Source: Ktedonobacterales bacterium (GTDB taxonomy: Bacteria; Chloroflexota; Ktedonobacteria; Ktedonobacterales; JADMIN01). Taken from it: a DNA stretch of 32,000 nucleotides. The position numbers and the translations under genes are program-made. The DNA is taken from assembly GCA_030167145.1 (NCBI GenBank), contig CP126532.1:3450001-3482000 (forward strand). Direction: 5' to 3'. Below the pieces are notes generated by a model, which made no database searches, had not been told where the DNA came from, and was given only the letters and a program-made list of their open reading frames with translations. This document shows, in pieces, positions 3,729 through 31,445 of this stretch (its first letter is position 1; every line of letters starts with the position of its first letter).

Positions 3729-4607
3729 ATGCCAGACATGCTGAGTGAAGCAGAGGCATTGGGGCGTATCGTGGTGTGGGCGGCGCAGCATCCGCTGGTG
3801 CGCGCCGTGGTGCTGCAAAGCTCGCGCGCCGTTGAGCAGGCTGTTCTCGACCGCTTCTCCGATTACGACATCCTGCTGGTCGTCTCCGATGTGCGCCCGT
3901 TCGCCGAGGACAACGCCTGGCAGCGCTTTTTCGCGGAACCACTGGTGCGCTTTGGCGACGCCGGTCAGGTGTTGGAAATTGAGACCTATGCCCGCCTGGT
4001 ACTCTATCAGGATCACACCAAAGTTGACTACACCATCTGGCCGGTCGAACTGCTACGGCGCGTGGTGGAACGCCAGGAATCCACAGAGTTGCTGGACTGG
4101 GGTTATCGTGTGCTGCTCGATAAGGACGGCCTGACGGCTGGCTTGCCCGCGCCCAGCCGCAGCGCGCACATTCCGCCGCGACCCACGGAGAAGCAGTATC
4201 AGGCGCTTATCGAGGAGTTCTGGTGGGAAACGATCTATGTCGCGAAGAATCTCTGGCGCGACGAGCTGGTCTTTGCCCAGTACAACCTGGACGTGGTGAT
4301 GCGCTTCGAACTCCTGCTGCGCATGCTCGAATGGCGCATTGAGCTTGACCATGACTGGTCATGGAAGCCAGGGGTGGTGGGAAGAGGACTGAAGCGACAC
4401 CTGCCGCCTGATCTCTGGTCTGCGCTGGAGCGCACCTATGTGGGGCCGGAGATCGAACAGAACTGGGAGGCGCTCTTTGCGATGACGGCGTTCTTCAGGC
4501 GAGCGGCGATGGAGGTCGGGCAGGCGCTAGAGTACGGATATCCCGTGGAGTTGGATCGCGGCGTCAGCGCGTACCTGGAAGAGGTGCGCCGCCTGCCCCG
4601 CTCTTGA
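3729..4607 (+). CDS. aminoglycoside 6-nucleotidyltransferase, ANT(6)/AadK-like
   Basis: 292 aa, with GGGAGGAG as SD. Block-by-block resemblance to AadK-type enzymes: VVLQSSRA...DRFSDYDILLVVSD, VLLDKDG, EEFWWETIYVAKNLWRDELVFAQ, LLLRMLEW. Confidence 0.8.
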   Translation: MPDMLSEAEALGRIVVWAAQHPLVRAVVLQSSRAVEQAVLDRFSDYDILLVVSDVRPFAEDNAWQRFFAEPLVRFGDAGQVLEIETYARLVLYQDHTKVDYTIWPVELLRRVVERQESTELLDWGYRVLLDKDGLTAGLPAPSRSAHIPPRPTEKQYQALIEEFWWETIYVAKNLWRDELVFAQYNLDVVMRFELLLRMLEWRIELDHDWSWKPGVVGRGLKRHLPPDLWSALERTYVGPEIEQNWEALFAMTAFFRRAAMEVGQALEYGYPVELDRGVSAYLEEVRRLPRS

Positions 4608-16069: not shown

Positions 16070-16999
16070 TCAATCCAGATATTCTTTGAGGATGCGGCTG
16101 GATGTCGGATGGCGCAGCTTGCGAATCGCGCGCTCTTCGATCTGCCGCACGCGCTCGCGCGTGACCTTCAGCTTCTTGCCCACTTCTTCGAGGGTGTGGT
16201 CGTGGTCATCCACCAGGCCGAAGCGCAGTTCGATCACCTGGCGCTCGCGCAGCGTCAGATTGTTCAGCACGCGCCGCACTTCTTCGCGTAGCAAGGCGCG
16301 CTCTGTCGAATCCGATGGGCCGGGCGCCTGGGTGTCTTCGATGATGTCCGAGAGCGAATTCTCTTCCTCATCGGAAAGTGGCGCGTCCAGCGAGAAGACT
16401 TTCTCCGCCAGCACCTGCAAGTTGATCACGCGCTCGGCGGGAATATCCAGCGCCGCGCCGATCTGCGCGGGTGTCGGCTCATGCCCGTATTCTTGATAGA
16501 GCTGGCGTGTCACCCGCTTGACGCGCATCACCTCTTCCATGATGTAGACCGGCAGACGCACAGTGCGCGTCCCTTCCAACAGAGACCGCGTGATTGCCTG
16601 TTTGATCCACCACGTGGCATAGGTGGAGAAGCGGAAGCCCTTCTCCGCGTCGAATTTGCCCACCGCGCGAATCAAGCCGATATTGCCTTCGCCGATCAAG
16701 TCTTCCATCTGCAAGCCCTGGCCAGCATAGCGCTTGGCGATACTCACCACCAGCCGCAGATTCGCCTCGATCAACTGATTGCGCGCCTCGCGTTCGTTGC
16801 GTGCGACGCGACGGGCAACCTCCAACTCGCTCTGCGCCGAGAGCAGCGGGATGCGCGAAATCTCGCGCAAGTAGAGGCGCAGGCTGTCGCTGGAAGCCAG
16901 TGCGCTCATATCTGATGTGTCTGCATCCACGATTGGCTCGCGCTCAGTGCGCGCCGCTCGTTCCGCTTCATAGGCCGCTGCGCGGTCGTCCATATTCAT
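16070..16999 (-). CDS. RNA polymerase sigma factor, RpoD/SigA family (regions 1.2-4.2)
   Basis: 309 aa. [58 protein letters not shown], and [29 protein letters not shown]. Confidence 0.9.
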
Positions 17000-17034: not shown

Positions 17035-17063
17035 CAGTATAGCACTCTCACTACCCTGCCGCA
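17035..17063 (-). promoter_or_regulatory. candidate promoter TTGCGG-N17-TATACT (with TGc extended -10) for the RpoD-like sigma gene
   Basis: The minus strand reads tgggcacTTGCGGcagggtagtgagagTGcTATACTgccg, 36 nt upstream of the ATG. Confidence 0.45.
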
Positions 17064-17254
17064 AGTGCCCAAATGTCCGGTTTTCCGCAGATTTCCCCCT
17101 GTTTTGGGTCATTTGTCCTATGCGTGTACCGGGAAGTACCAGATGTCATGACCCGCTGTGGTCCGGCGCGCTTACTGCGCTACGATTGCTCGCCCGCGCT
17201 CATCCGCTGCTGCCAGATTGTCGTCAACTTTGCCAGCAGGTTTCAGGCCAGCCT

Positions 17255-22256: not shown

Positions 22257-23423
22257 TCACTCTTCTTCCGTCGCTTCCTCGCTCTTGGTGTCAGCCAGCG
22301 CGCCCTGGAGCGTGCGCGCGACATCGAAAGGGTCGCTGGCGACGACGCTGGTGCCGAAGAGTTCCAGCGCGGCGATATCGGAGGTGGGCGAGAGCGGGTT
22401 GCCGCGATCCACGAAGCGCGCCACCAGCGGGAAGCCCCGCCAGCGCGGCTCCGGCTGGCCCAGCGGCGGGCCGAAGACGGCGATGTTGAACGCGCGCACG
22501 CCCAGCTCGCCCAGCGCCGCGCGCAGTGTCGCCGCCAGCGGCTCGGCCAGCGCCGCTAGCTCCACCGCATCCATCGCGCCATCTTGATAGGTGGGGACCA
22601 GCGCGATCACCTCGCGCTCCTTCACTGGCGTCAGCGACGCGAATAGCTCCACCTTGTCGTCGCCGCCCGCTGCCAGCCCCAGCGCCCGATGGACCGTTGC
22701 CAGATCGGCGAAGTAGTCGCTCCCCGTCTCGGCGTGGTAGCGTTCGGCTGCCGCGCGCCAGAGTTCCACCCGCGCGTGCGCCGATTGCGGGCTGAGCGTC
22801 ATCTGCGTGTGCCCATGCACCAGCGATGCCCCCGCGCGCCACAGGCAGTTCCACAGCAAGAAGAAGTGGCGCGCCTCCGCGTCGGCCTCGCGCACCTGCC
22901 CCGCCCACTCGCCCGCGACCGCCAGCACGTCTTCCACCAGCGCCAGGTCGAGCGCCAGCGGATCGTGCCGGTCGAAGACGCCGACGCTGTGCCAGCCCTC
23001 CGCCTTGGCGACATTGGCCGCCGTCACCACGTGCCGCCCGCGTATGCGCCCGAAGCTGTCGGCGGGGGTGCGATGCTCCGGGTCGCAGAAGTCGTCGCCC
23101 TGGCTGCGCTCGATGCGCTCGCGTAGCTCCGGCGGATCGGCGGCGGGGGCCGCATGCGTCGTGCCGCTGCCCGGACGCCGCGCCCGCAGCGAATTGAAGG
23201 TCGCGCCCTCGAAGGTCCAGCGATTGGTGACGCGCACGATGCGCTGGCGCAGCGTCGCCTCCACCGAGCCGAAGGTGCGTTCCAGCCACGGCGTCATCTC
23301 CGGCGGCGGCACAATCGTTCCTTCGGTCGCGATCACGTCGAAGAGTCGCTCCGCCAGGGCGCGCTCATCGGCAGGCAGCGCCGCGATGGCAGCGGGCAGT
23401 TGGTCTATGCGCGTTTCGGGCAC
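22257..23423 (-). CDS. GalT-like HIT-superfamily nucleotidyltransferase/phosphorylase (substrate unknown)
   Basis: 388 aa. FNSLRARRP matches the GalT N-terminal S-x-h-R-x-x-RP motif. GWHSVGVFDRHDPLAL fits the h-e-V-i-x-x-x-x-H pattern. GASLVHGHTQM has the same spacing as GalT GCSNPHPHGQ (G-x-S-x-x-H-x-H-x-Q). The usual CxxC zinc site is reduced to a single Cys (DDFCDPEH). Confidence 0.6.
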   Translation of the reverse strand: MPETRIDQLPAAIAALPADERALAERLFDVIATEGTIVPPPEMTPWLERTFGSVEATLRQRIVRVTNRWTFEGATFNSLRARRPGSGTTHAAPAADPPELRERIERSQGDDFCDPEHRTPADSFGRIRGRHVVTAANVAKAEGWHSVGVFDRHDPLALDLALVEDVLAVAGEWAGQVREADAEARHFFLLWNCLWRAGASLVHGHTQMTLSPQSAHARVELWRAAAERYHAETGSDYFADLATVHRALGLAAGGDDKVELFASLTPVKEREVIALVPTYQDGAMDAVELAALAEPLAATLRAALGELGVRAFNIAVFGPPLGQPEPRWRGFPLVARFVDRGNPLSPTSDIAALELFGTSVVASDPFDVARTLQGALADTKSEEATEEE

Positions 23424-23473: not shown

Positions 23474-25123
23474 TTACTGCGCGGCGGCCTCGCGTGGCGT
23501 GGCGCGTTCCGCTGTGATGCGCTGCAATTCCTGCGCCCGGCGATACAGCGCGACGTACTGCTCCGCCGAGGCGTCCCAGGAATAGTCGGCGAGCATCGCG
23601 CGCTGCATCAGGTCGCTCCATATCTCAGGAAACTGGAAGACTTCCAGCGCGCGCACCACCGCCGCGAAGAATTGGAAGGGATCGTAGCGCGCGAAGCTGA
23701 AGCCGTTGCCGGTGTTCTCCGCTGGATCGAAGTCCTGCACGGTGTCGGCGAGACCGCCGGTGCTGTGGACGATGGGAATGCTGCCGTAGCGCATCGCCAG
23801 CATCTGCGTCAGGCCGCACGGCTCGAAACGCGAGGGCATCAGCAACATATCCGAGCCAGCGTAGATGCTCTGGCTCATCTCCACATTGAAGGTCAAATGC
23901 ACCGAGACCTGCCGAGGATAGCGCGCGGCGAGGCGCTGGAACATCGAATGGTAGTGCTGGTCGCCGGTGCCGGAGACGACGAGTTGGATGCCCTGCTCTA
24001 GCAGCGGCACGGCAATCTGGTCCAGCAGGTCGAAGCCTTTCTGGTCCGAGAGACGCGAGATGATCGCCACTATCGGCGTCTGCGCGCTGACCGGCAGCCC
24101 CGAATGCTCTTGCAGCGTGCGCTTATTGGCAGGGCGCTTCTCCAACGAAAAGGCGTCGTAGTTCGCGGCGATGCGTGCATCAGTCGCGGGATCATATTCC
24201 TGGGTATCTATGCCGTTGAGGATGCCGTAGAGCCGGTCCTTGCGCTCGCGCAGAATTGGATGCAGCCGCTCGCCGTATTCGGGTGTGAGAATCTCGCGGG
24301 CGTAGCGCGGACTGACGGTGCTAACCACATCGGCGAAGAGAATGCCCCGTCCCATCAGATCCACCACGTTCGCCAGCTCTGGCAGCTCTGGATAGACGAA
24401 GCCGCCCTCGGCGACGCCCGCCACTTCGAGGATACGGTAGCCGAAGATGCCCTGGTAGGCGAGATTGTGGATAGTGTAGACGGTGGCGGTCTGCGCGAAA
24501 TGAGGATCGTCGCGGTAGATGGTTTTGGTCCAGTTAGGGATGATTGCCGTATGCCAGTCGTGGCAATGCAGGATGTCAGGCTGCCAATCGAGCGCGCGGG
24601 TGAGTTCCAGCGCGGCGCGGCAGAAGAGGATGAAGCGCTCGCCCTCGTCAGGATAGCCGTAAAGCTTCTCGCGCTGGAAGTAATGCTCGGTGTCCACGAA
24701 GTAGAATGGCACATCGCCAATCGGTGGCGATTCCAGCACGCTCACCGTCTCGAAGACCGAGTCCATCGGCACGCGAAGCTCCGGAATGAGCGGGCGCAGA
24801 TGCCAGCGTTCGGCGTCAATGCTCTTGTAGCGCGGCAGCGCCACGCGCACATCGTGGCCCATCCGCCGCAGCGCATGTGGCAGCGCGCCAATCACATCGG
24901 CCAGGCCGCCTGTCTTGGCGAATGGCACACCTTCCGAGGCGACGAACAGGACGCGCAACGGTTTGCCGCGCAGCGCCGCCTCCACATCCAATGGGGCGGC
25001 TCCGGGAGCAATCTCGTCTTCGGGCGCGGCGAGGATGGCAGGCAGCCCATTCAGCGGCAGCCGCGACGCGGTTGGGTATGATGGCAGCGTAGACGGGGGA
25101 TCTCCGGGCGAAATGCGAGACAT
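23474..25123 (-). CDS. glgA: glycogen (starch) synthase, GT5
   Basis: LRVLFVASEGVPFAKTGGLADVIGALPHAL is the K-T-G-G-L motif region. HCHDWHTA and the C-terminal PSRFEPCGLTQMLAMRYGSIPIVHSTGGLADTV are also present. ATG 25123 has GAGGGAGGA upstream and leaves a Pro-rich extension of about 55 aa. An internal TTG/GTG start about 45 codons downstream cannot be excluded. Confidence 0.92.
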   Translation of the reverse strand: MSRISPGDPPSTLPSYPTASRLPLNGLPAILAAPEDEIAPGAAPLDVEAALRGKPLRVLFVASEGVPFAKTGGLADVIGALPHALRRMGHDVRVALPRYKSIDAERWHLRPLIPELRVPMDSVFETVSVLESPPIGDVPFYFVDTEHYFQREKLYGYPDEGERFILFCRAALELTRALDWQPDILHCHDWHTAIIPNWTKTIYRDDPHFAQTATVYTIHNLAYQGIFGYRILEVAGVAEGGFVYPELPELANVVDLMGRGILFADVVSTVSPRYAREILTPEYGERLHPILRERKDRLYGILNGIDTQEYDPATDARIAANYDAFSLEKRPANKRTLQEHSGLPVSAQTPIVAIISRLSDQKGFDLLDQIAVPLLEQGIQLVVSGTGDQHYHSMFQRLAARYPRQVSVHLTFNVEMSQSIYAGSDMLLMPSRFEPCGLTQMLAMRYGSIPIVHSTGGLADTVQDFDPAENTGNGFSFARYDPFQFFAAVVRALEVFQFPEIWSDLMQRAMLADYSWDASAEQYVALYRRAQELQRITAERATPREAAAQ

Positions 25124-25341: not shown

Positions 25342-25382
25342 AAAAAAAGACGGCCCGCGACATGTATGCCAGGAGCCGTCTT
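25342..25382 (-). terminator. intrinsic (Rho-independent) terminator closing the cytochrome operon
   Basis: The minus strand reads AAGACGGC-tcctggcatacatgtcgcgg-GCCGTCTT followed by TTTTTgtg. That is an 8-bp stem, a 20-nt loop and a 7-T run counting the two stem Ts. It begins 14 nt after the stop at 25396. Confidence 0.75.
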
Positions 25383-25395
25383 GTATGCGGTAGGG

Positions 25396-27294
25396 TTAGC
25401 GCGTCACGACGAACGATTCAGCGCCGCCGTTCGCCTCGGCGTATTCGAGTTCTTCGTCGGGGCCAGCGGCGGTGTAGGCGAAGGCCCCGACCATCGCGAC
25501 GATGAACGCGGCGACGATCAGTTCAGGATACGGATTCGGCAGGTTGTAGATCACGATGCCAAAGGCCAGCGCGACCAGCGCCAGCGCGCCAATGGCGACC
25601 ATCCACGGGATCGAACTGGCCCGCCACGCGCCGTAGAGGCAGGTGGCGATACCGACGATCTCGAAGCAGATGCCCGCAACGAAAACCGCATGTCCGCCTT
25701 CCATCGCGTTGATGCCCTGGTCCAGCACGTTGTTGTGGAAGCCCTGAATTGCGCCCACCATCATCAACGCCACGGCCACCAGCATCGTCCACATCGCGAA
25801 CTTGCGCAGGTTGCTCATCGGCTTGCGGCGGATCAGCAGCGTCATCTGGAACCCCGCCAGGCCGCCCATCAGCAGCAGACCCCAGAAGGCGTCGTGCAGC
25901 AGGTTCGCCCCCGGCAGATACACCAGGGCCAGCGCCTCGATCTCGAAGAAGCTCGGCAGCGAGAAGACCGCGAAGCCGAACAGGTAGATCAAGAGCAGCG
26001 TGCCCAGCACCAGCCACTGCCCCGTGCAGCCAAGCTGCTGCGCGGAGGTTGGCGCGAATTCGCGTTGCGTGCCCCAGGTCCAGACGAACGCCACAATCAC
26101 GATGCTCGTGGCGATAATCATGCCGATGGCCAATTGCAGCGGGTCATCCACGTGAACCACGGTCGCGGCGAGCGCGACGTAGATCAGGCCGTAGGTGCCA
26201 CCCAGCACCACCATATCGCGGCGGCTGCTCCAGAAGAACAGCCCGGCGATCAGCAGGCCGAAGGTCATGCTGAAGACTATCGCGCAGATGATGTAGCCGG
26301 TGAACGGGGTGAAGCTGCAACTCGTGGGGATCTCGGTCTTCTGCGAACACTGCACCCACACCTGATTCGAGTCTATCCCGTGGACAAAGTTCACCACCGG
26401 ATAGACCAGCGCCCAGACGATGAGCAGCGGCACGCCGACGAAGCCGAGCAGCCCCACCACACCATGCAGGTAGTTGGCGGGCATGAAGCGCTGGCGATTT
26501 GTCGTCATCACCGGCAGCAGCCAGACAATCGTGCCGAAGAGCGCCAGCCCCAGCGCGAAGAACAGCACCACGTTGCCTGCTGGCCCGTGCAGCGTATCAC
26601 CCTTCGGCTGAAGTGTCTCCGGCGTGAAGGTGAGGATCGAGAGGTAGAGGGCGATGATGACGAACGAGAGTCCCAGGCTGAAGCGCACGATCAGGTCGCG
26701 CGTTGGCCCCACGAGACGCCCAGAGAGCACGAACGGATTCAGCACGGCGATGAAGAACATGCCCAGGCCGATCAGCAGGGCAATGTAGCCGACGGCGGCG
26801 ATGTCTATGCTGCCGGGCTGGAACCACGCCTGATGGAACAGATACGCCTGTCCATCCACCGGCCAGTAGCGAATATGCGCGCCCGCCGGGTTGCGAATGT
26901 CTCCGGGCAGGAACTCGAACCAGCCGGGTTTGCCGGTAATCACGCTCGTACCGCTGATGCCCACCATCACCTGATACACGAAGAATGCGCCAATCGCCGT
27001 GATGCCCGCGCCGACCAGCGCGAAGAGCGGCCACGGAATCAGCGGCTTGGGGTCGTAGAGGAAGGCGATCTCCAGCGCGATGACGCCGAAGCCGATGGCG
27101 AGCAGCGAGAGCGCCAGCGTACCCTGCTCGAAGCGCGCCAGCGTGGCGAGCGTGGAGATGGTGAAGATGTAGCTGGGCAACTGGCCGATGAGGATGGCGG
27201 TGAGAAAGAAAAAGCCGGTGGCGATAAGAACCGCCCGCGCCCATGACATTGGCTTTTCATGCTCGCGTATGGGCGCCGCTGCCGAAACTTGCAT
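25396..27294 (-). CDS. polytopic membrane protein, about 16 TM helices, no recognised family
   Basis: 632 aa. ATG 27294 has AAAGGGA 9 nt upstream. About 16 hydrophobic spans of 20-25 aa were counted by eye. No haem-copper oxidase, transporter P-loop or other motif was recognised. The antisense 656-aa ORF is rejected. Confidence 0.75.
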   Translation of the reverse strand: MQVSAAAPIREHEKPMSWARAVLIATGFFFLTAILIGQLPSYIFTISTLATLARFEQGTLALSLLAIGFGVIALEIAFLYDPKPLIPWPLFALVGAGITAIGAFFVYQVMVGISGTSVITGKPGWFEFLPGDIRNPAGAHIRYWPVDGQAYLFHQAWFQPGSIDIAAVGYIALLIGLGMFFIAVLNPFVLSGRLVGPTRDLIVRFSLGLSFVIIALYLSILTFTPETLQPKGDTLHGPAGNVVLFFALGLALFGTIVWLLPVMTTNRQRFMPANYLHGVVGLLGFVGVPLLIVWALVYPVVNFVHGIDSNQVWVQCSQKTEIPTSCSFTPFTGYIICAIVFSMTFGLLIAGLFFWSSRRDMVVLGGTYGLIYVALAATVVHVDDPLQLAIGMIIATSIVIVAFVWTWGTQREFAPTSAQQLGCTGQWLVLGTLLLIYLFGFAVFSLPSFFEIEALALVYLPGANLLHDAFWGLLLMGGLAGFQMTLLIRRKPMSNLRKFAMWTMLVAVALMMVGAIQGFHNNVLDQGINAMEGGHAVFVAGICFEIVGIATCLYGAWRASSIPWMVAIGALALVALAFGIVIYNLPNPYPELIVAAFIVAMVGAFAYTAAGPDEELEYAEANGGAESFVVTR

Positions 27295-27367
27295 GGATCA
27301 TGATCCCTTTCAGACGATGATTCCCGCTTCCGGGGCGGAGTCGCCACAGAACGGATGCGCGATACGT

Positions 27368-27402
27368 GCCGCCGCGCCCGATGCGAAACCGAACACGGCG
27401 GC
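27368..27402 (-). promoter_or_regulatory. intercistronic GC stem-loop (7-bp stem GCCGCCG/CGGCGGC, 21-nt loop)
   Basis: Lies in the 129-nt gap between the cyt c::cupredoxin gene and the 632-aa gene. It has no U-tract. Confidence 0.25.
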
Positions 27403-27423
27403 GCAGACAAGTGGAGACGACGT

Positions 27424-28464
27424 TTATGGCACCACAGTGATCCAGCCGACCATCGCCGGGTGGATGCCGCAGTAGAAGGGATATTCGCCAGGCGCCGTCA
27501 GCGTGACGGTGAAGGTCTGTGTGCTATTGGCGGGAATGATATTCGGGTCGCCGAACTTGCCATCAGGTGTGCCATTGCCGCTGAAGACGTTGTGCGGCGC
27601 GCTCGACTTATTGCCGAAGATGATCGTCGTGCCCGCCTTGACGATGATGTCGCTGGTCTGGCCGCTGGTAGCCTCTTGTGCCACCCAACCCCAGTTCGCC
27701 GTCGAAGTCGTCGCGGCGTCTTCCGCGTCCATATGCACCGTCGTGAGCGTTGACAAATCCGTGAACTGCGTCAGTGGCGGTTTGCTGCCGCCCTTCTTAT
27801 CTTCCTCGTACTGCGCGATCTGTGTCGGGTCGGTCAAGGTACCGAGCACGTAGCTGAAGCCATTGACATCGCCGAGATTGTTCGTGGCGCGGTACTGCGG
27901 ATCGCTGGAACGGATCAGCGCGACGAGATACGCGATGTCGTCGTCGGTGAGCGGGCCACCGAACGCCTCAGACCATGCGGGCATCGAGAACTTGGTCAGA
28001 TCGTCGGGGTTTGGCACGCCCGCCGAGATGATGCGCGACAGATCGTTGGTGGTGAGCTTATTGACGGAATCATTGTTGTTCAGCTTCGGGCCAGCTTTGC
28101 CGTTCCCCTGGAAGCCGTGACAACTGGCGCAATAGGTTGCGAAGAGCGCAGCGCCACGCTGAAGCGTCAACTGATACTGCGCGGAGGCCTGAGTGGCCTG
28201 CGCTTGCTGCTGGTTGACGATCAGCAGCGGAATGATGAAGGCAATGGCGATGATGAAGAGCAGCGCGCCGTAGCCGGTTTTCTCGACGGCATCGGCGCGG
28301 GAGTAGAAGATGTAGATCAGCGCCGAAACGACCAGCGCGATCACCGCCATGCCGAAGCCAATCCGAGCATCGAGCACGCCCGTGACGCCCAGCAGCGCAA
28401 ACAGCACCGCCAGCGCCACCCCGGCGGTGACGGCGAGCATGCCGGGATTCCGACTTGTTCCCAT
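27424..28464 (-). CDS. membrane-anchored monohaem cytochrome c fused to a type-1 copper cupredoxin domain
   Basis: 346 aa, with GAGGA as SD. Three N-terminal hydrophobic helices. CASCHG is the haem c site, and KFSMPAW is the likely Met ligand region. The C-terminal roughly 100 aa carry SSAPHNVF (His ligand) and FYCGIHPAMVGWITV (Cys-x2-His-x2-Met), as in amicyanin/plastocyanin-type proteins. Confidence 0.85.
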   Translation of the reverse strand: MGTSRNPGMLAVTAGVALAVLFALLGVTGVLDARIGFGMAVIALVVSALIYIFYSRADAVEKTGYGALLFIIAIAFIIPLLIVNQQQAQATQASAQYQLTLQRGAALFATYCASCHGFQGNGKAGPKLNNNDSVNKLTTNDLSRIISAGVPNPDDLTKFSMPAWSEAFGGPLTDDDIAYLVALIRSSDPQYRATNNLGDVNGFSYVLGTLTDPTQIAQYEEDKKGGSKPPLTQFTDLSTLTTVHMDAEDAATTSTANWGWVAQEATSGQTSDIIVKAGTTIIFGNKSSAPHNVFSGNGTPDGKFGDPNIIPANSTQTFTVTLTAPGEYPFYCGIHPAMVGWITVVP

Positions 28465-28523
28465 GAGCCTCTATCCTCGTGTCTAGTACAGTCCGTGAAC
28501 GTCCGCACGCTGGGCGCGGCTAG

Positions 28524-29213
28524 TTACGCATGGCAGGCAACGGTCGGCACCGCCAGGATGCGTGTGCTGGTATCGGGGCGCTGCACGGTTTGGTTCAGCT
28601 TGCCGGTATTGACCATCACATTGCCACTGCTGAAGAACATCACGAAACGGTCGAGGCTACGCGGCGCGGGGCCGTCGAGATACTCGCCGTCAATGTTGTA
28701 GTGCGAGCCGTGGCAGGGGCACTTGAAGCTTACGCAGTCGTTGCGGAACGGCACTTTGCAGCCCAGGTGGACGCAGACCTGATACAACGCCAGCCAGTAC
28801 GTGCCGTCGGCATCGTCTTTGAGCCAGTTCTCCGCATCCTGTTGATTGGTGAGCGTGACACCACTCAGCAGGAATTGCGCGCCCGCCGCCGTGAGATGCA
28901 TGATGTAGCTCTTGGCCAGCGGCTCGTAGAACATGCCCTGCTCATCAATGAGGAAGTCTTTCTGCGCGGCGGGCTTGTAGGCCGTCTTAGCTTTCAACTG
29001 GATGATCGAGCCGAACTGCCCCGCCAGATTCGGGTAGAACATGGTCAGCGCGGCATACGTGCCCGACGTGGCGGCCAGCGCCACCCCCAGGCCCGTCGCG
29101 CGGCGCAATAACTGGCGACGGCTCAGCCCCCGCCGTGCGACCTCCGCCGATTCGGCTCCGCCGCCCGACAGCACCTCGTACTCTTGGGGGGTACGCTTGG
29201 TATCAATGCTCAT
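28524..29213 (-). CDS. Rieske [2Fe-2S] subunit with twin-arginine signal
   Basis: 229 aa. RRGLSRRQLLRRATGLGVALAA is Tat-type. CVHLGC and CPCHGS are the two cluster-binding boxes. TGAGGGA is the SD. Confidence 0.92.
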   Translation of the reverse strand: MSIDTKRTPQEYEVLSGGGAESAEVARRGLSRRQLLRRATGLGVALAATSGTYAALTMFYPNLAGQFGSIIQLKAKTAYKPAAQKDFLIDEQGMFYEPLAKSYIMHLTAAGAQFLLSGVTLTNQQDAENWLKDDADGTYWLALYQVCVHLGCKVPFRNDCVSFKCPCHGSHYNIDGEYLDGPAPRSLDRFVMFFSSGNVMVNTGKLNQTVQRPDTSTRILAVPTVACHA

Positions 29214-29303
29214 GTGATGTCCCTCAATCGGTACTCTTCGCCCTCGTGATAACGCTCAAACCCGCCAAAGCGCGCCCGACACGCGGGCGCGCCATGCAAG
29301 CCG

Positions 29304-29828
29304 CTAGAGGTTGAAGTAGATGTGCTGCCACGGCCAGACCCACACCCAGCCGGAGCCACGGAAGAAGCTGCCCGCAAGCACGGTCACGGCAAAATAGATG
29401 GCAAAGATCGTGAAGAGCGTAATCGAAAGCTTGCGATCCTCGAACGCGCGGCTGGGGTTGCGGTCCACATACGGCAGCAGCGCCAACGCCACCAGCACAA
29501 AGCCCGGCAGCAGCACACCGGCCACAGTCGGCGGGAAGTAGTGCAGTTGTTCTTGCAGGCCGAGGAAGTACCACGGCGCCTTCGCCGGGTTCGGCGTCAG
29601 GTTCGGGTTCGAGTGCGCTTCCAGCGGCGCGTCAATCACGATGCTCGTGATCGTGAGCACGACGGTCATCAGTACGGCGGAAAGAAACTCGCGCACCAGC
29701 AAGTGCGGCCACACGAACACGGAGTCTTCGAGCTGCCGCTCAACGCGCGTGATGGCTTCCTGCTTGACGACGGCCAGCGTGCGATAGCGCTTCTGGGTCG
29801 CCGCCGTTCGCGGCTCTGTCGTTGCCAT
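29304..29828 (-). CDS. cytochrome b C-terminal part / subunit IV-like (PetD/QcrC-N-like), 3 TM
   Basis: ATG 29828 after AAGGAG. NPAKAPWYFLGLQEQL aligns with the PEWYFF Qo segment of subunit IV. Three hydrophobic helices. Confidence 0.85.
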   Translation of the reverse strand: MATTEPRTAATQKRYRTLAVVKQEAITRVERQLEDSVFVWPHLLVREFLSAVLMTVVLTITSIVIDAPLEAHSNPNLTPNPAKAPWYFLGLQEQLHYFPPTVAGVLLPGFVLVALALLPYVDRNPSRAFEDRKLSITLFTIFAIYFAVTVLAGSFFRGSGWVWVWPWQHIYFNL

Positions 29829-29901
29829 GGAAATCTCCTTGGGGTCCTCCGCCGGAGCAAAGCCAGATGCGCCATCGCGCCTTGCCCCGGCCAAGCAACA
29901 C

Positions 29902-30717
29902 CTAGTTCAGTGAGCCAACAGCAGCCACATCCTGCTGGGCGCGGGCCTGCTCAAGCTCGCGGCGCGATGGCGGTGGCGGACCCGCTTCACCACCATCTTT
30001 CCGAATGCGCCAGAAATGGACCGCCATCAGGATTGCGCCCACCAGCGGCAGCGCGATCACATGCAGCGTATAGAAGCGAATGAGCGTCGGCTGGCCCACA
30101 CCCACCGACTGACCGGCGAGCGCGTTGTGCGCCTGCACGCCGAGCAGCGGCGCGTAACTGGCCATGTTCGAGCCAACGGTGATAGCCCAGTAGCCAATCT
30201 GGTCCCACGGCAGCAGGTAGCCCGTGAAGCTGAGCAGCAGCGTGGTCAGGAAGAGCACCACCCCCACAACCCAGTTGAACTCGCGCGGCGGCTTATACGC
30301 GCCATGGTAGAAGACGCGAATCATGTGCAGCGTGACGGTGACGACCATCAAGTGCGCGGCCCAGCGGTGCATGTTACGCACCAGATTGCCGAATGCCACC
30401 GCGCTCTTGATCTGCTCGATGTCGGTGTAGGCGACCCGCTGCTCCGGCACAAAGTAGAACATCAGGAACACGCCGGTAATCGTCAACACCAGAAAGAGGA
30501 AGAAGGACATACCACCCAGGCACCACGTATAGGTGATTTTCATCGCCTTTCGGCTCACCTTGACCGGATGCAGGTGCAGGAAAACATTCCCCATCATCAC
30601 CAGCGATTGGTTGAGCGGGGTGTCAGGATAGCCGTGCCGGAAAATAGACCGCCAGATCTGGCTCTGCGTAATTGCCGCCGATGCCTTATCCAGCAGCCCC
30701 CGATTCATCGTGCTCAC
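29902..30717 (-). CDS. cytochrome b6-type subunit (PetB/QcrB-like), 4 TM
   Basis: 271 aa. Close block similarity to cytochrome b6: WCLGG, NMHRWAAHLMVVTVTLHMIRVF, FTGYLLPWDQIGYWA, and RFYTLHVIALPLVGAILMAVHFWRIRKDGG. GTG start at 30717 lies 4 nt after GAGGAGG; ATG 30708 is the alternative. Confidence 0.93.
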   Translation of the reverse strand: MSTMNRGLLDKASAAITQSQIWRSIFRHGYPDTPLNQSLVMMGNVFLHLHPVKVSRKAMKITYTWCLGGMSFFLFLVLTITGVFLMFYFVPEQRVAYTDIEQIKSAVAFGNLVRNMHRWAAHLMVVTVTLHMIRVFYHGAYKPPREFNWVVGVVLFLTTLLLSFTGYLLPWDQIGYWAITVGSNMASYAPLLGVQAHNALAGQSVGVGQPTLIRFYTLHVIALPLVGAILMAVHFWRIRKDGGEAGPPPPSRRELEQARAQQDVAAVGSLN

Positions 30718-30735
30718 ACTGCCTCCTCGGGGATG

Positions 30736-30758
30736 GCCGCGCGCCGATGATGCGCGGC
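30736..30758 (-). promoter_or_regulatory. GC stem-loop (7-bp GCCGCGC/GCGCGGC, 9-nt loop) 7 nt upstream of the cyt b SD
   Basis: Read directly. It sits inside the predicted 141-nt leader. Confidence 0.3.
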
Positions 30759-30864
30759 TGCAAAGTTGCGGAAAATCACCGAAAGTCGCTATAAAAGCAT
30801 GCCGAAACGTTCAACGCTAAGAGGGGCACATACACGGCGCCTCTGTTGAGAGCATAGCCAGACA

Positions 30865-30893
30865 AGTATAACAGAACAACGATATAGGCGCAA
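30865..30893 (-). promoter_or_regulatory. candidate promoter TTGCGC-N17-TATACT (TGt extended -10) for the cytochrome operon
   Basis: The minus strand reads tgggcaaTTGCGCctatatcgttgttcTGtTATACTtgtc. It shares TGGGCAnTTGCGs...TATACT with the RpoD-like gene promoter. Confidence 0.45.
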
Positions 30894-31085
30894 TTGCCCA
30901 GGTTGTCTGGCGGGCGCTCAGGGAGGCGTCGCGGTGTGGATCCGTGGACGGAACGCGCGGTATTGAGGAGAGCGCGCAACATCCGTGGCCAGATAGCGCC
31001 AACTCTATCAGATCAAGTGTACCGCAGAGTGTGGGCCACTCCTATCAGGTGTACACCTGATTTTTCATATGCGCCGCACGCTCGC

Positions 31086-31355
31086 TCATCCGCCGTGCCC
31101 ATTGTGCGCGTGAGTCTGTGATGCGCGATGCGCGCGAATGAGTGTGAAAAGTTGATCGAGAACGGTTATTTCATCAAGCTCGGCATCTTCTTCGGGAGTG
31201 AGGGCGCTAGCTTCATTCTTCTCCATCAGCGCATGCACTCGTTCCTGTGCCTGCTCGGAGATGCGGAAATTGGCAATGTCCTCCGCCGAAGGGCCGCGCG
31301 CCAGGAACTCCGCGACCTCTTCCGTCAGCGTGCGCCGGGGAAGCGTCTGACTCAT
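31086..31355 (-). CDS. small hypothetical protein (89 aa)
   Basis: Internal ATG 31355. IANFRISEQAQERVHALMEKNEASALTPEEDAELDEITVLDQLFTLIRAHRA resembles a widespread small helical protein family that I cannot name. The SD is weak. Confidence 0.45.
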   Translation of the reverse strand: MSQTLPRRTLTEEVAEFLARGPSAEDIANFRISEQAQERVHALMEKNEASALTPEEDAELDEITVLDQLFTLIRAHRASQTHAHNGHGG

Positions 31356-31445
31356 GCGTGAGCCGCCATTCGTTTTCTCGTGAACACATGGACTAGTCGG
31401 ATTGCCAGCCATGCGAGCGATGCCGCCACGTCACGATGTGTTCGC

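Follow-up and report, generated by a model that had tools for sequence, protein, structure and literature searches.

What kind of respiratory complex is encoded by five adjacent genes of a Ktedonobacterales bacterium in which a split cytochrome b and a Rieske protein are followed by a cytochrome c fused to a cupredoxin and by a large membrane protein? Ktedonobacteria are abundant aerobic bacteria of soils and caves, and their respiratory chains have so far been annotated by analogy only. The genes in question lie in a stretch of 32,000 nucleotides (the 32-kb window, i.e., positions 3,450,001 to 3,482,000 of contig CP126532.1), where the reading of the open reading frames (ORFs) revealed five co-directional genes on the minus strand, spanning positions 25342-30893. 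On the basis of their sequences, we consider it probable that they encode a b6-type, menaquinol-oxidising Rieske/cytochrome b complex of the APWY clade, in which the electrons would leave through a tethered heme c and then a copper centre, and of which the large membrane protein is a likely partner. What is new, being undescribed in the searchable literature, is the subunit composition and the gene order, the core being known from phylogenies.

The first gene (29902-30717, minus strand, as are all the others) starts with GTG and codes for a cytochrome b6-type subunit of 271 amino acids (PF00033, 1.2e-46). It is followed by a gene for a subunit IV-type protein (29304-29828; 174 amino acids; three transmembrane (TM) helices; PF00032), whose ATG start at 29828 is backed by full-length tblastn alignments, and by one for a Rieske [2Fe-2S] protein (28524-29213; 229 amino acids; PF00355) carrying the twin-arginine translocation (Tat) signal SRRQLL. 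The fourth gene (27424-28464) codes for a membrane-anchored cytochrome c::type-1 cupredoxin fusion of 346 amino acids (PF00034 and PF00127), and the fifth (25396-27294) for a polytopic membrane protein of 632 amino acids with 16 predicted TM helices and without a family match. The four intergenic gaps measure 73, 90, 59, and 129 nucleotides (nt). The gene order, the strand and these gaps are exactly those claimed by a first-pass annotation of this DNA, made from the sequence alone; the identities that it had assigned to the first four products are also in agreement with the Pfam families found (Cytochrome_B, Cytochrom_B_C, Rieske, and Cytochrom_C plus Copper-bind), with which NCBIfam is consistent.

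A genome scan with the 632-residue protein, in which one genome per GTDB species was considered, retrieved 38 loci, all of them from Ktedonobacterales or from metagenome-assembled genomes (MAGs) of Chloroflexota. The order b6-IV-Rieske-fusion-TM protein, on one strand, was found in all 32 genome loci with enough flanking sequence, while six contigs are truncated and hold as much of the cluster as their length allows. Six additional loci (L039-L042, L044, and L045), which belong to divergent or cultured relatives, have the same full cluster; the cultured carriers are Ktedonosporobacter rubrisoli and Tengunoibacter tsumagoiensis, and even the most divergent family members (35-41% identity) retain it. 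The family comprises two deeply diverged clades; besides the 16-helix form there is a short form that lacks the last four helices, so that the common core consists of 12 helices. A search of metagenome contigs with the fusion protein as the query showed the Rieske gene directly upstream in 52 of 52 testable loci and the order b6-IV-Rieske in 40 of 40; the TM protein gene lies no more than 600 nt downstream of the fusion gene in 54 of 56, the best alignment starting about 1 kb downstream in the other two. The first-pass annotation had raised the question whether homologues of the last two genes usually lie far from cytochrome b and Rieske genes; the opposite was found, given the adjacency in 32/32 genome loci and in 54/56 metagenome loci. 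The median gaps, as calculated from the 38 loci with the complete set of genes, measure 75, 84, 66, and 118 nt (range 20-250 nt). The gap preceding the last gene is reduced to 27-62 nt in about ten loci, and in some of them it measures just 27-44 nt, which leaves no room for a promoter of its own. Outside the cluster, the gene content differs from locus to locus: the gene for glycogen synthase, which in the window lies downstream (23474-25123), is found 0.1-6 kb away or is replaced, and an upstream ORF of 108 amino acids (31086-31412) has neither a family match nor a counterpart in related loci.

Two peculiar cases emerged from this survey. A contig labelled as a Proteobacteria MAG (L009, JAJPIU010000130.1) carries a complete Ktedonobacterales-type cluster, with 53-88% identity; its taxon label is probably a binning or labelling error. 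In four loci of the short clade (L077, L095, L102, and L105), the TM protein gene is about 572 codons long and seems to be separated from the fusion gene by about 1 kb, which suggests an insertion or an N-terminal extension in this subgroup.

The analysis of the first three products points to a core of the b6 type. Cytochrome b is split into a b6 protein with four TM helices and a subunit IV with three, encoded by separate ORFs. The best solved relative of the former is a cyanobacterial cytochrome b6 (E-value 4.7e-47), and its four heme-ligand histidines (helices B and D) all align with those of the cyanobacterial cytochrome b6 7r0w_I; the spacing of the histidines in helix D, as read from the sequence, is 14 residues, i.e., of the b6 type. 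The cytochrome b6 of the window contains the heme ci cysteine motif CLGG, and either CLGG or CMGG is present in 38/38 loci. Subunit IV carries, at the Qo site, the motif APWY instead of PEWY (39/39 loci), and the two Rieske boxes, CVHLGC and CPCHGSHY, are identical in 40/40 loci. The Rieske cluster would be of the high-potential type, because box II contains both the serine and the tyrosine that are regarded as markers predicting a high midpoint potential (PMC3509893).

This core is not without relatives in the literature. Indeed, Baymann et al. (PMC3509893) listed Ktedonobacter racemifer among the organisms of group A2, in which cytochrome b is split and bears the ci cysteine, Dibrova et al. 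(PMC5600118) placed Ktedonobacteria in subfamily G, and Kao and Hunte (PMC4122944) defined an APWY clade of cytochrome b that includes Chloroflexi. Judging from its motifs, the b6/IV/Rieske core is a member of this known but uncharacterised APWY clade. The idea of an "undescribed variant" of a quinol-oxidising module, put forward in the first-pass annotation, is thus to be restricted: we found no description of this subunit composition and order, and the core itself was already present in the A2, subfamily G and APWY phylogenies. A search of the literature for a Ktedonobacterial complex III, or for a c::cupredoxin subunit, returned just phylogenetic listings of cytochrome b. As for NCBIfam, the top match of cytochrome b is the Geobacter ExtP equivalog, whose cut-off is barely passed (300.9 bits vs. 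290). The ExtP label was rejected as a description of its function, because the ExtQ model fails its own cut-off (52.6 bits vs. 150) and the gene context differs, no other ext genes being found in the locus.

The fourth product is the most unusual of the redox subunits. It consists of three N-terminal TM helices, a class I cytochrome c domain with the single CxxCH motif of the protein (CASCH) and the methionine of an MPAW stretch, a conserved linker, and a cupredoxin domain. The charge distribution around the helices suggests that both the c and the cupredoxin domains are located outside the membrane. The nearest solved structures are actinobacterial QcrC and CcoP for the former, and plastocyanin and amicyanin for the latter; the QcrC model reaches just 32 bits vs. 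a cut-off of 200, and the cytochrome f family gave no match at an E-value threshold of 0.01. The copper ligands His291, Cys332, His335, and Met338 are invariant in two family alignments, and the motif C-x2-H-x2-M is found in 43/43 loci. Judging from this motif, the copper site is a mononuclear type-1 centre and not CuA, because the spacing of its ligands is amicyanin-like. The first-pass annotation had counted two of the five products as having no counterpart in characterised complexes, which remains valid for the c-to-copper fusion and for the TM protein; it does not apply to the c domain, for which counterparts do exist.

The CxxCH motif is present in most loci and is replaced by CxxxCY in K. 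rubrisoli, in T. tsumagoiensis and in one MAG lineage (the corresponding fusion genes being located at L044:8897-9892, L045:8899-9909, and L040:6905-7894 in the two cultured species and in the related MAG, respectively). In these proteins the MPAW methionine stretch is deleted, the four copper ligands are kept, and an extra pair of cysteines has been gained; in this sublineage, heme c thus appears to have been naturally lost from the fourth subunit. Heme loss as a trait of the whole short clade was considered and rejected, because a CxxCH match was obtained in 79 of 80 metagenome loci, among them the whole set of 65 for which the short-clade query gave the best match, and CxxCH stands beside the MPAW methionine in 12/12 metagenome loci inspected. 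Since the copper ligands are invariant even where the heme site has been lost, copper would be the constant centre of this subunit, heme c appearing dispensable in at least one lineage.

The fifth product is carried as a hypothetical protein in the source genome annotation. Neither Pfam nor NCBIfam gave a match for it, and Pfam searches with 13 family members at E-values up to 5 yielded scattered single matches only. No match was found when the family profile was searched against the PDB at E-values up to 10, and a profile search of 1.84 billion representative proteins returned 63 matches, all of them members or fragments of the same family. This family is large (at 90% identity, the long form accounts for more than 200 clusters and the short one for more than 570), and all of its named members are Ktedonobacteria or Chloroflexota; as far as its sequences allow one to judge, it represents an orphan family confined to Ktedonobacteria. 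The AlphaFold2 model built from a 114-sequence alignment (predicted local distance difference test, pLDDT, 89; predicted template modelling score 0.89) contains 16 TM helices, in agreement with the approximately 16 originally claimed, and two small beta-hairpins. A Foldseek comparison with the PDB gave a best E-value of 0.05 and template modelling scores of 0.2 or less, and a model with a pLDDT of 67 likewise had no match below an E-value of 0.05, with scores of 0.2 or less; the predicted fold thus appears to match no solved structure in the PDB.

Within the order, the TM protein shows an identity of 55-74%, which drops to 35% between the two deeply diverged clades, across which 27 columns are invariant; its sequences indicate that the protein is under purifying selection. 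Among the histidines, only H381 is invariant, H305 being conserved at 90% or more. By the positive-inside rule, the N-terminus is predicted to be inside. The outer face of the model would then carry the conserved residues E56, D164, H305, H381, E451, E453, and D468 and the C316/C326 hairpin, and would be the side on which the Rieske, c and copper domains are located; on the inner face one would find the motifs YDPKP, R267-x3-M-x3-Y, and LGCxGxW. Several identities were tried for this protein and discarded. A heme-copper oxidase subunit I was rejected, as no COX1 match was obtained at E-values up to 5 and the template modelling score to the quinol-dependent nitric oxide reductase qNOR was 0.2 or less; a ligand set of the heme-copper oxidase type is ruled out because H381 alone is invariant and H305 nearly so. 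NrfD/ActC, CcsBA, and CopD were dropped, no signature of any of them being present. The sequence comparison of helix blocks disclosed no internal repeat, and an internal duplication was rejected (hhalign probability of 8% or less).

The transcription signals are in agreement with a single unit. The promoter proposed in the first-pass annotation is present on the minus strand at 30865-30893, with the -35 box TTGCGC (30893-30888), a 17-nt spacer and the -10 box TATACT (30870-30865); the spacer ends in TG, which generates the extended -10 element TGnTATACT. A generic promoter scanner gave no call at this site. In an alignment of the 260 nt upstream of cytochrome b from 34 orthologous loci, the conserved columns comprise TTGC, a TG-n-TAT..T block, a GCCGCGC arm and the ribosome-binding site GAGGAGGCAG (the last two conserved at 70% or more), and the sequence between them varies freely. 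The motif TTGCNN-N13-15-TGnTAnnnT recurs upstream of cytochrome b in 24/34 loci vs. 0.05 expected in shuffled sequences, a count that represents a phylogenetic footprint in related loci and not 24 independent events. Just two matches of this motif are present in the whole window and none of them falls in the 129-nt gap. The other one (17036-17064, minus strand; TTGCGG-N15-TGCTATACT) precedes, at a distance of 36 nt, a full-length gene of the sigma-70 family (16070-16999, minus strand; regions 1.2, 2, 3, and 4), and because this second copy precedes such a gene, it is suggested that TTGCNN plus an extended -10 element is the housekeeping promoter type of the lineage.

The leader that follows the promoter (30718-30864, minus strand; about 147 nt) contains the Shine-Dalgarno sequence GAGGAGG (30722-30728) and, as previously claimed, a GC hairpin (GCCGCGC...GCGCGGC, 30736-30758), whose 5' arm is the conserved one; in about 20/34 loci, a hairpin of the CCGCGC type precedes the start codon by 26-57 nt. 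The fold of the whole leader is not exceptional (z 0.34), and an Rfam search of the leader and of the gaps revealed no known RNA. Hence, a structured, riboswitch-like leader was rejected on account of this z value and the small conserved hairpin remains. At the opposite end of the cluster, an intrinsic terminator (25342-25382, minus strand) consists of a bulged GC hairpin followed by seven U residues (free energy -26.9 kcal/mol, z -4.4). It is the only hairpin in the window followed by six or more T residues, and indeed its T run is the only one of that length on either strand of the 32 kb, so that the statement that this is the sole canonical intrinsic terminator of the window holds. The scan also bore out that none of the four intergenic gaps contains a stem followed by a U-tract. 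Because the conserved promoter is found upstream of cytochrome b only, the gaps are short and a terminator follows the last gene, we infer that the five genes are co-transcribed as one operon, conserved across the class Ktedonobacteria.

The 129-nt gap before the last gene does contain a stem-loop (27368-27402, minus strand) with a 15-bp GC stem and no U-tract. A stem of 10-19 bp recurs in the same position in about 30 of 42 loci (L004-L045) and is absent where the gap measures 27-62 nt; these stems may set a differential stability of the mRNA or the translation of the last gene. Concerning regulation, genes for a histidine kinase (HisKA_3) and a response regulator (GerE type) occur upstream of the cluster only in L039-L045, i.e., in the short clade plus L039, lying divergently about 0.4 kb upstream of cytochrome b in L039-L041, L044, and L045; the pair is absent from the window and its close relatives and, in the lineages that possess it, is a candidate for regulating the operon. 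In the window, a perfect 18-bp palindrome (ATCAGGTGTACACCTGAT, 31044-31061) is located between the upstream ORF and the promoter of the operon and might serve as an operator or, since TTTTCA follows it there, as a terminator for the opposite strand.

How might such a complex work? According to the reading that we prefer, menaquinol would be oxidised at a Qo site made by cytochrome b6 and subunit IV, and one electron would be passed to the Tat-exported, high-potential-type Rieske cluster, from there to the heme c of the anchored fourth subunit, and then to the type-1 copper centre of the same polypeptide. The second electron would cross the membrane via hemes bL, bH, and ci and re-reduce quinone, in a Q cycle that builds proton-motive force. 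The copper centre would behave as a tethered, plastocyanin- or auracyanin-like carrier delivering electrons to a terminal oxidase, the copper domain standing in for a diffusible carrier. Anchored or fused electron carriers occur in Bacillus and Actinobacteria, the c-type module of Rieske/cytochrome b complexes is interchangeable, and copper proteins can act as acceptors. A tethered carrier also fits the aa3 oxidases listed in surveys of Ktedonobacterial genomes (PMC13374853). Both the direction of the electron flow and the acceptor are, in this scheme, inferred. The TM protein is most likely a lineage-specific integral partner of the complex, with a possible function in docking the mobile periplasmic domains or in connecting the complex with its oxidase.

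Some data weigh against this interpretation. According to Kao and Hunte, no complex of the APWY clade has been characterised, and such complexes may run in reverse (PMC4122944). The terminator of the window is real; it is, however, not a trait of the family, a comparable one being found downstream of the orthologous last gene in just 6/39 loci. Moreover, the stem-loop that precedes the TM protein gene could lower its expression, an effect easier to reconcile with a sub-stoichiometric factor than with a core subunit. Lastly, the anchor of the fusion protein has three helices where the TM protein has 16 and two where it has 12 (66/72 loci); this correlation reflects essentially one split between the two clades, so that it is weak evidence for a physical partnership. 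If the complex did work in reverse, electrons from a periplasmic donor would enter through the copper/heme c subunit and the Rieske protein and would be driven uphill to menaquinone at the expense of the proton-motive force, an operation to which the APWY motif, present in all the loci considered, has been tied in the literature (PMC4122944) and with which the high-potential-type box CPCHGSHY, unusual for a menaquinone organism, might be consistent. That proposal was, however, based on the gene context of Geobacter (PMC4122944), and the aa3 oxidases of the Ktedonobacterial surveys need a high-potential donor (PMC13374853). We rate reverse operation as unlikely, because none of about 120 loci has a gene for a donor enzyme linked to the cluster and because the class-wide conservation of the cluster in aerobic heterotrophs fits a housekeeping, forward-running complex III.

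The role of the fifth protein leaves room for a wider range of hypotheses. It might be a biogenesis factor, present in low stoichiometry and acting at the outer face of the membrane, where it would deliver copper to the cupredoxin or handle heme and thiols for the c and ci centres, rather than a subunit. The conserved His, Asp, and Glu residues and the Cys pair on the predicted outer face, the conserved Cys-Gly motif at the predicted inner face, the invariance of the copper ligands encoded by the adjacent gene, and a stem-loop that could reduce expression in most of the loci would all be in agreement with such a function. However, Pfam, NCBIfam and the PDB disclosed no likeness to copper chaperones or to the CopD, CtaG, Sco, Ccs, Res, or CCB families, a single histidine is strictly invariant across both clades, and 12-16 helices are many for a chaperone; on balance, we regard this role as rather improbable, though worth keeping in mind. 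A more ambitious idea is that the TM protein is a new redox or ion-translocating subunit drawing electrons from the tethered copper, the whole forming a self-contained supercomplex from quinol to terminal acceptor, built on a novel membrane fold; we consider it very unlikely. The related notion that the last two genes encode a second enzyme, in which the c::cupredoxin protein would be the oxidase subunit II and the TM protein a novel catalytic or ion-translocating subunit of a SoxM-like supercomplex, may draw on the resemblance of the gene order to coxB-coxA, on the 12-helix core common to both clades, and on a fold without a PDB match. The TM protein has no signature of a heme-copper oxidase, with its one invariant and one nearly invariant histidine, nor any COX1 or NrfD match, the cupredoxin site is mononuclear instead of CuA, and no other cofactor motif is evident, all of which leaves this notion highly improbable. 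Finally, the fifth gene might be just a conserved neighbour with an unrelated membrane function and a promoter of its own, the operon ending after the fourth gene. The length of the 129-nt gap, its strong stem-loop, and a weak sigma-70-like match inside the fourth gene (27563-27536) could be invoked in this sense. But the two genes are adjacent in every testable locus of two clades that share 35% identity, while the outer genes vary; the gap shrinks to a few tens of nucleotides in about ten loci, the promoter motif of the lineage is absent from it, and the stem has no U-tract. A mere neighbour is thus the least credible of the explanations considered, with hardly any probability left to it.

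It is useful to compare the putative complex, interpreted as a menaquinol-oxidising b6-type module with a tethered copper exit, with the systems already described. The b6f complex of cyanobacteria and chloroplasts (PetB, PetD, PetC, and PetA) shares with it the split cytochrome b (four plus three helices), the CxGG heme ci cysteine, the 14-residue spacing of the helix D histidines, the Tat-type Rieske protein, and a blue-copper acceptor, which in b6f is plastocyanin. In b6f, however, there is a cytochrome f, whereas the Ktedonobacterial complex has a class I c-type domain; plastocyanin is soluble, whereas the copper domain is here fused and membrane-anchored; the Qo motif is PEWY instead of APWY. 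Moreover, the Ktedonobacterial genes form one operon in the order b-IV-Rieske-c with an extra protein of 12-16 helices, and no small Pet subunits were identified. The members of the APWY clade, group A2, or subfamily G from Geobacter, Planctomycetes, Symbiobacterium, Rubrobacter, and Chloroflexi share the split cytochrome b, the ci cysteine and the APWY motif (PMC4122944, PMC3509893, PMC5600118). Those APWY-clade members that have been described occur together with multiheme cytochromes, with NAD(P)-binding iron-sulfur oxidoreductases or with p-cresol methylhydroxylase, and none of them with a c::cupredoxin fusion or with the Ktedonobacterial TM protein.

The b6c complexes of Firmicutes and heliobacteria (Bacillus QcrABC and Heliobacterium PetCBDA) also have a split cytochrome b with heme ci, use menaquinol, and possess a membrane-anchored c-type cytochrome in place of a soluble carrier, a solution of the monoderm type. 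In Bacillus QcrABC, however, the c domain is fused to subunit IV, which in our case is a separate protein, the c domain being fused to the cupredoxin; the heliobacterial complex has a diheme c; and both differ from our case in having the Rieske gene first and not third, PDWY as the Qo motif, and no copper domain. As for the copper protein, Sulfolobus SoxM, with its sulfocyanin SoxE, and the haloarchaeal halocyanin-Rieske/cytochrome b cluster provide examples in which a type-1 copper protein is encoded together with a Rieske/cytochrome b module as its high-potential partner, and the haloarchaeal cytochrome b is also split. These systems are, however, archaeal and their copper protein is a separate polypeptide without a c-type heme; in addition, a true heme-copper oxidase subunit is part of SoxM, whereas the 632-residue protein is no such subunit. 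In the actinobacterial bcc complex (QcrCAB, found in the bcc-aa3 supercomplex), a built-in second redox domain replaces the diffusible carrier, and the part that we propose here for the copper domain is taken by the second heme of the diheme QcrC. The second centre there is a heme c, cytochrome b is unsplit and has no heme ci, and the gene order is c-Rieske-b.

If the interpretation proposed is correct, the Rieske/b6 cluster is probably the complex III of Ktedonobacteria, of an uncharacterised type whose electron exit would wire heme c straight to a blue-copper domain on one anchored polypeptide. The two cultured carriers might offer a tractable system for the first biochemistry on the APWY clade and for the question of forward vs. 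reverse operation, and the sublineage without the heme site might reveal, in a natural experiment, whether electrons need heme c to pass from the Rieske cluster to copper. In addition, a new family of membrane proteins would be tied to a well-understood machine.

Two further observations concern other genes of the window. After the glycogen synthase gene there is an ORF of 388 amino acids (22257-23423, minus strand), which has no Pfam match and contains an HGHTQ motif; it is kept next to glgA, at 61-76% identity, in at least 13 related loci, and may code for a glycogen-linked enzyme of unknown family. Unrelated to the Rieske/b6 cluster is an ORF on the plus strand (3729-4607), with a strong match to streptomycin adenylyltransferase (PF04439, 1.6e-73).

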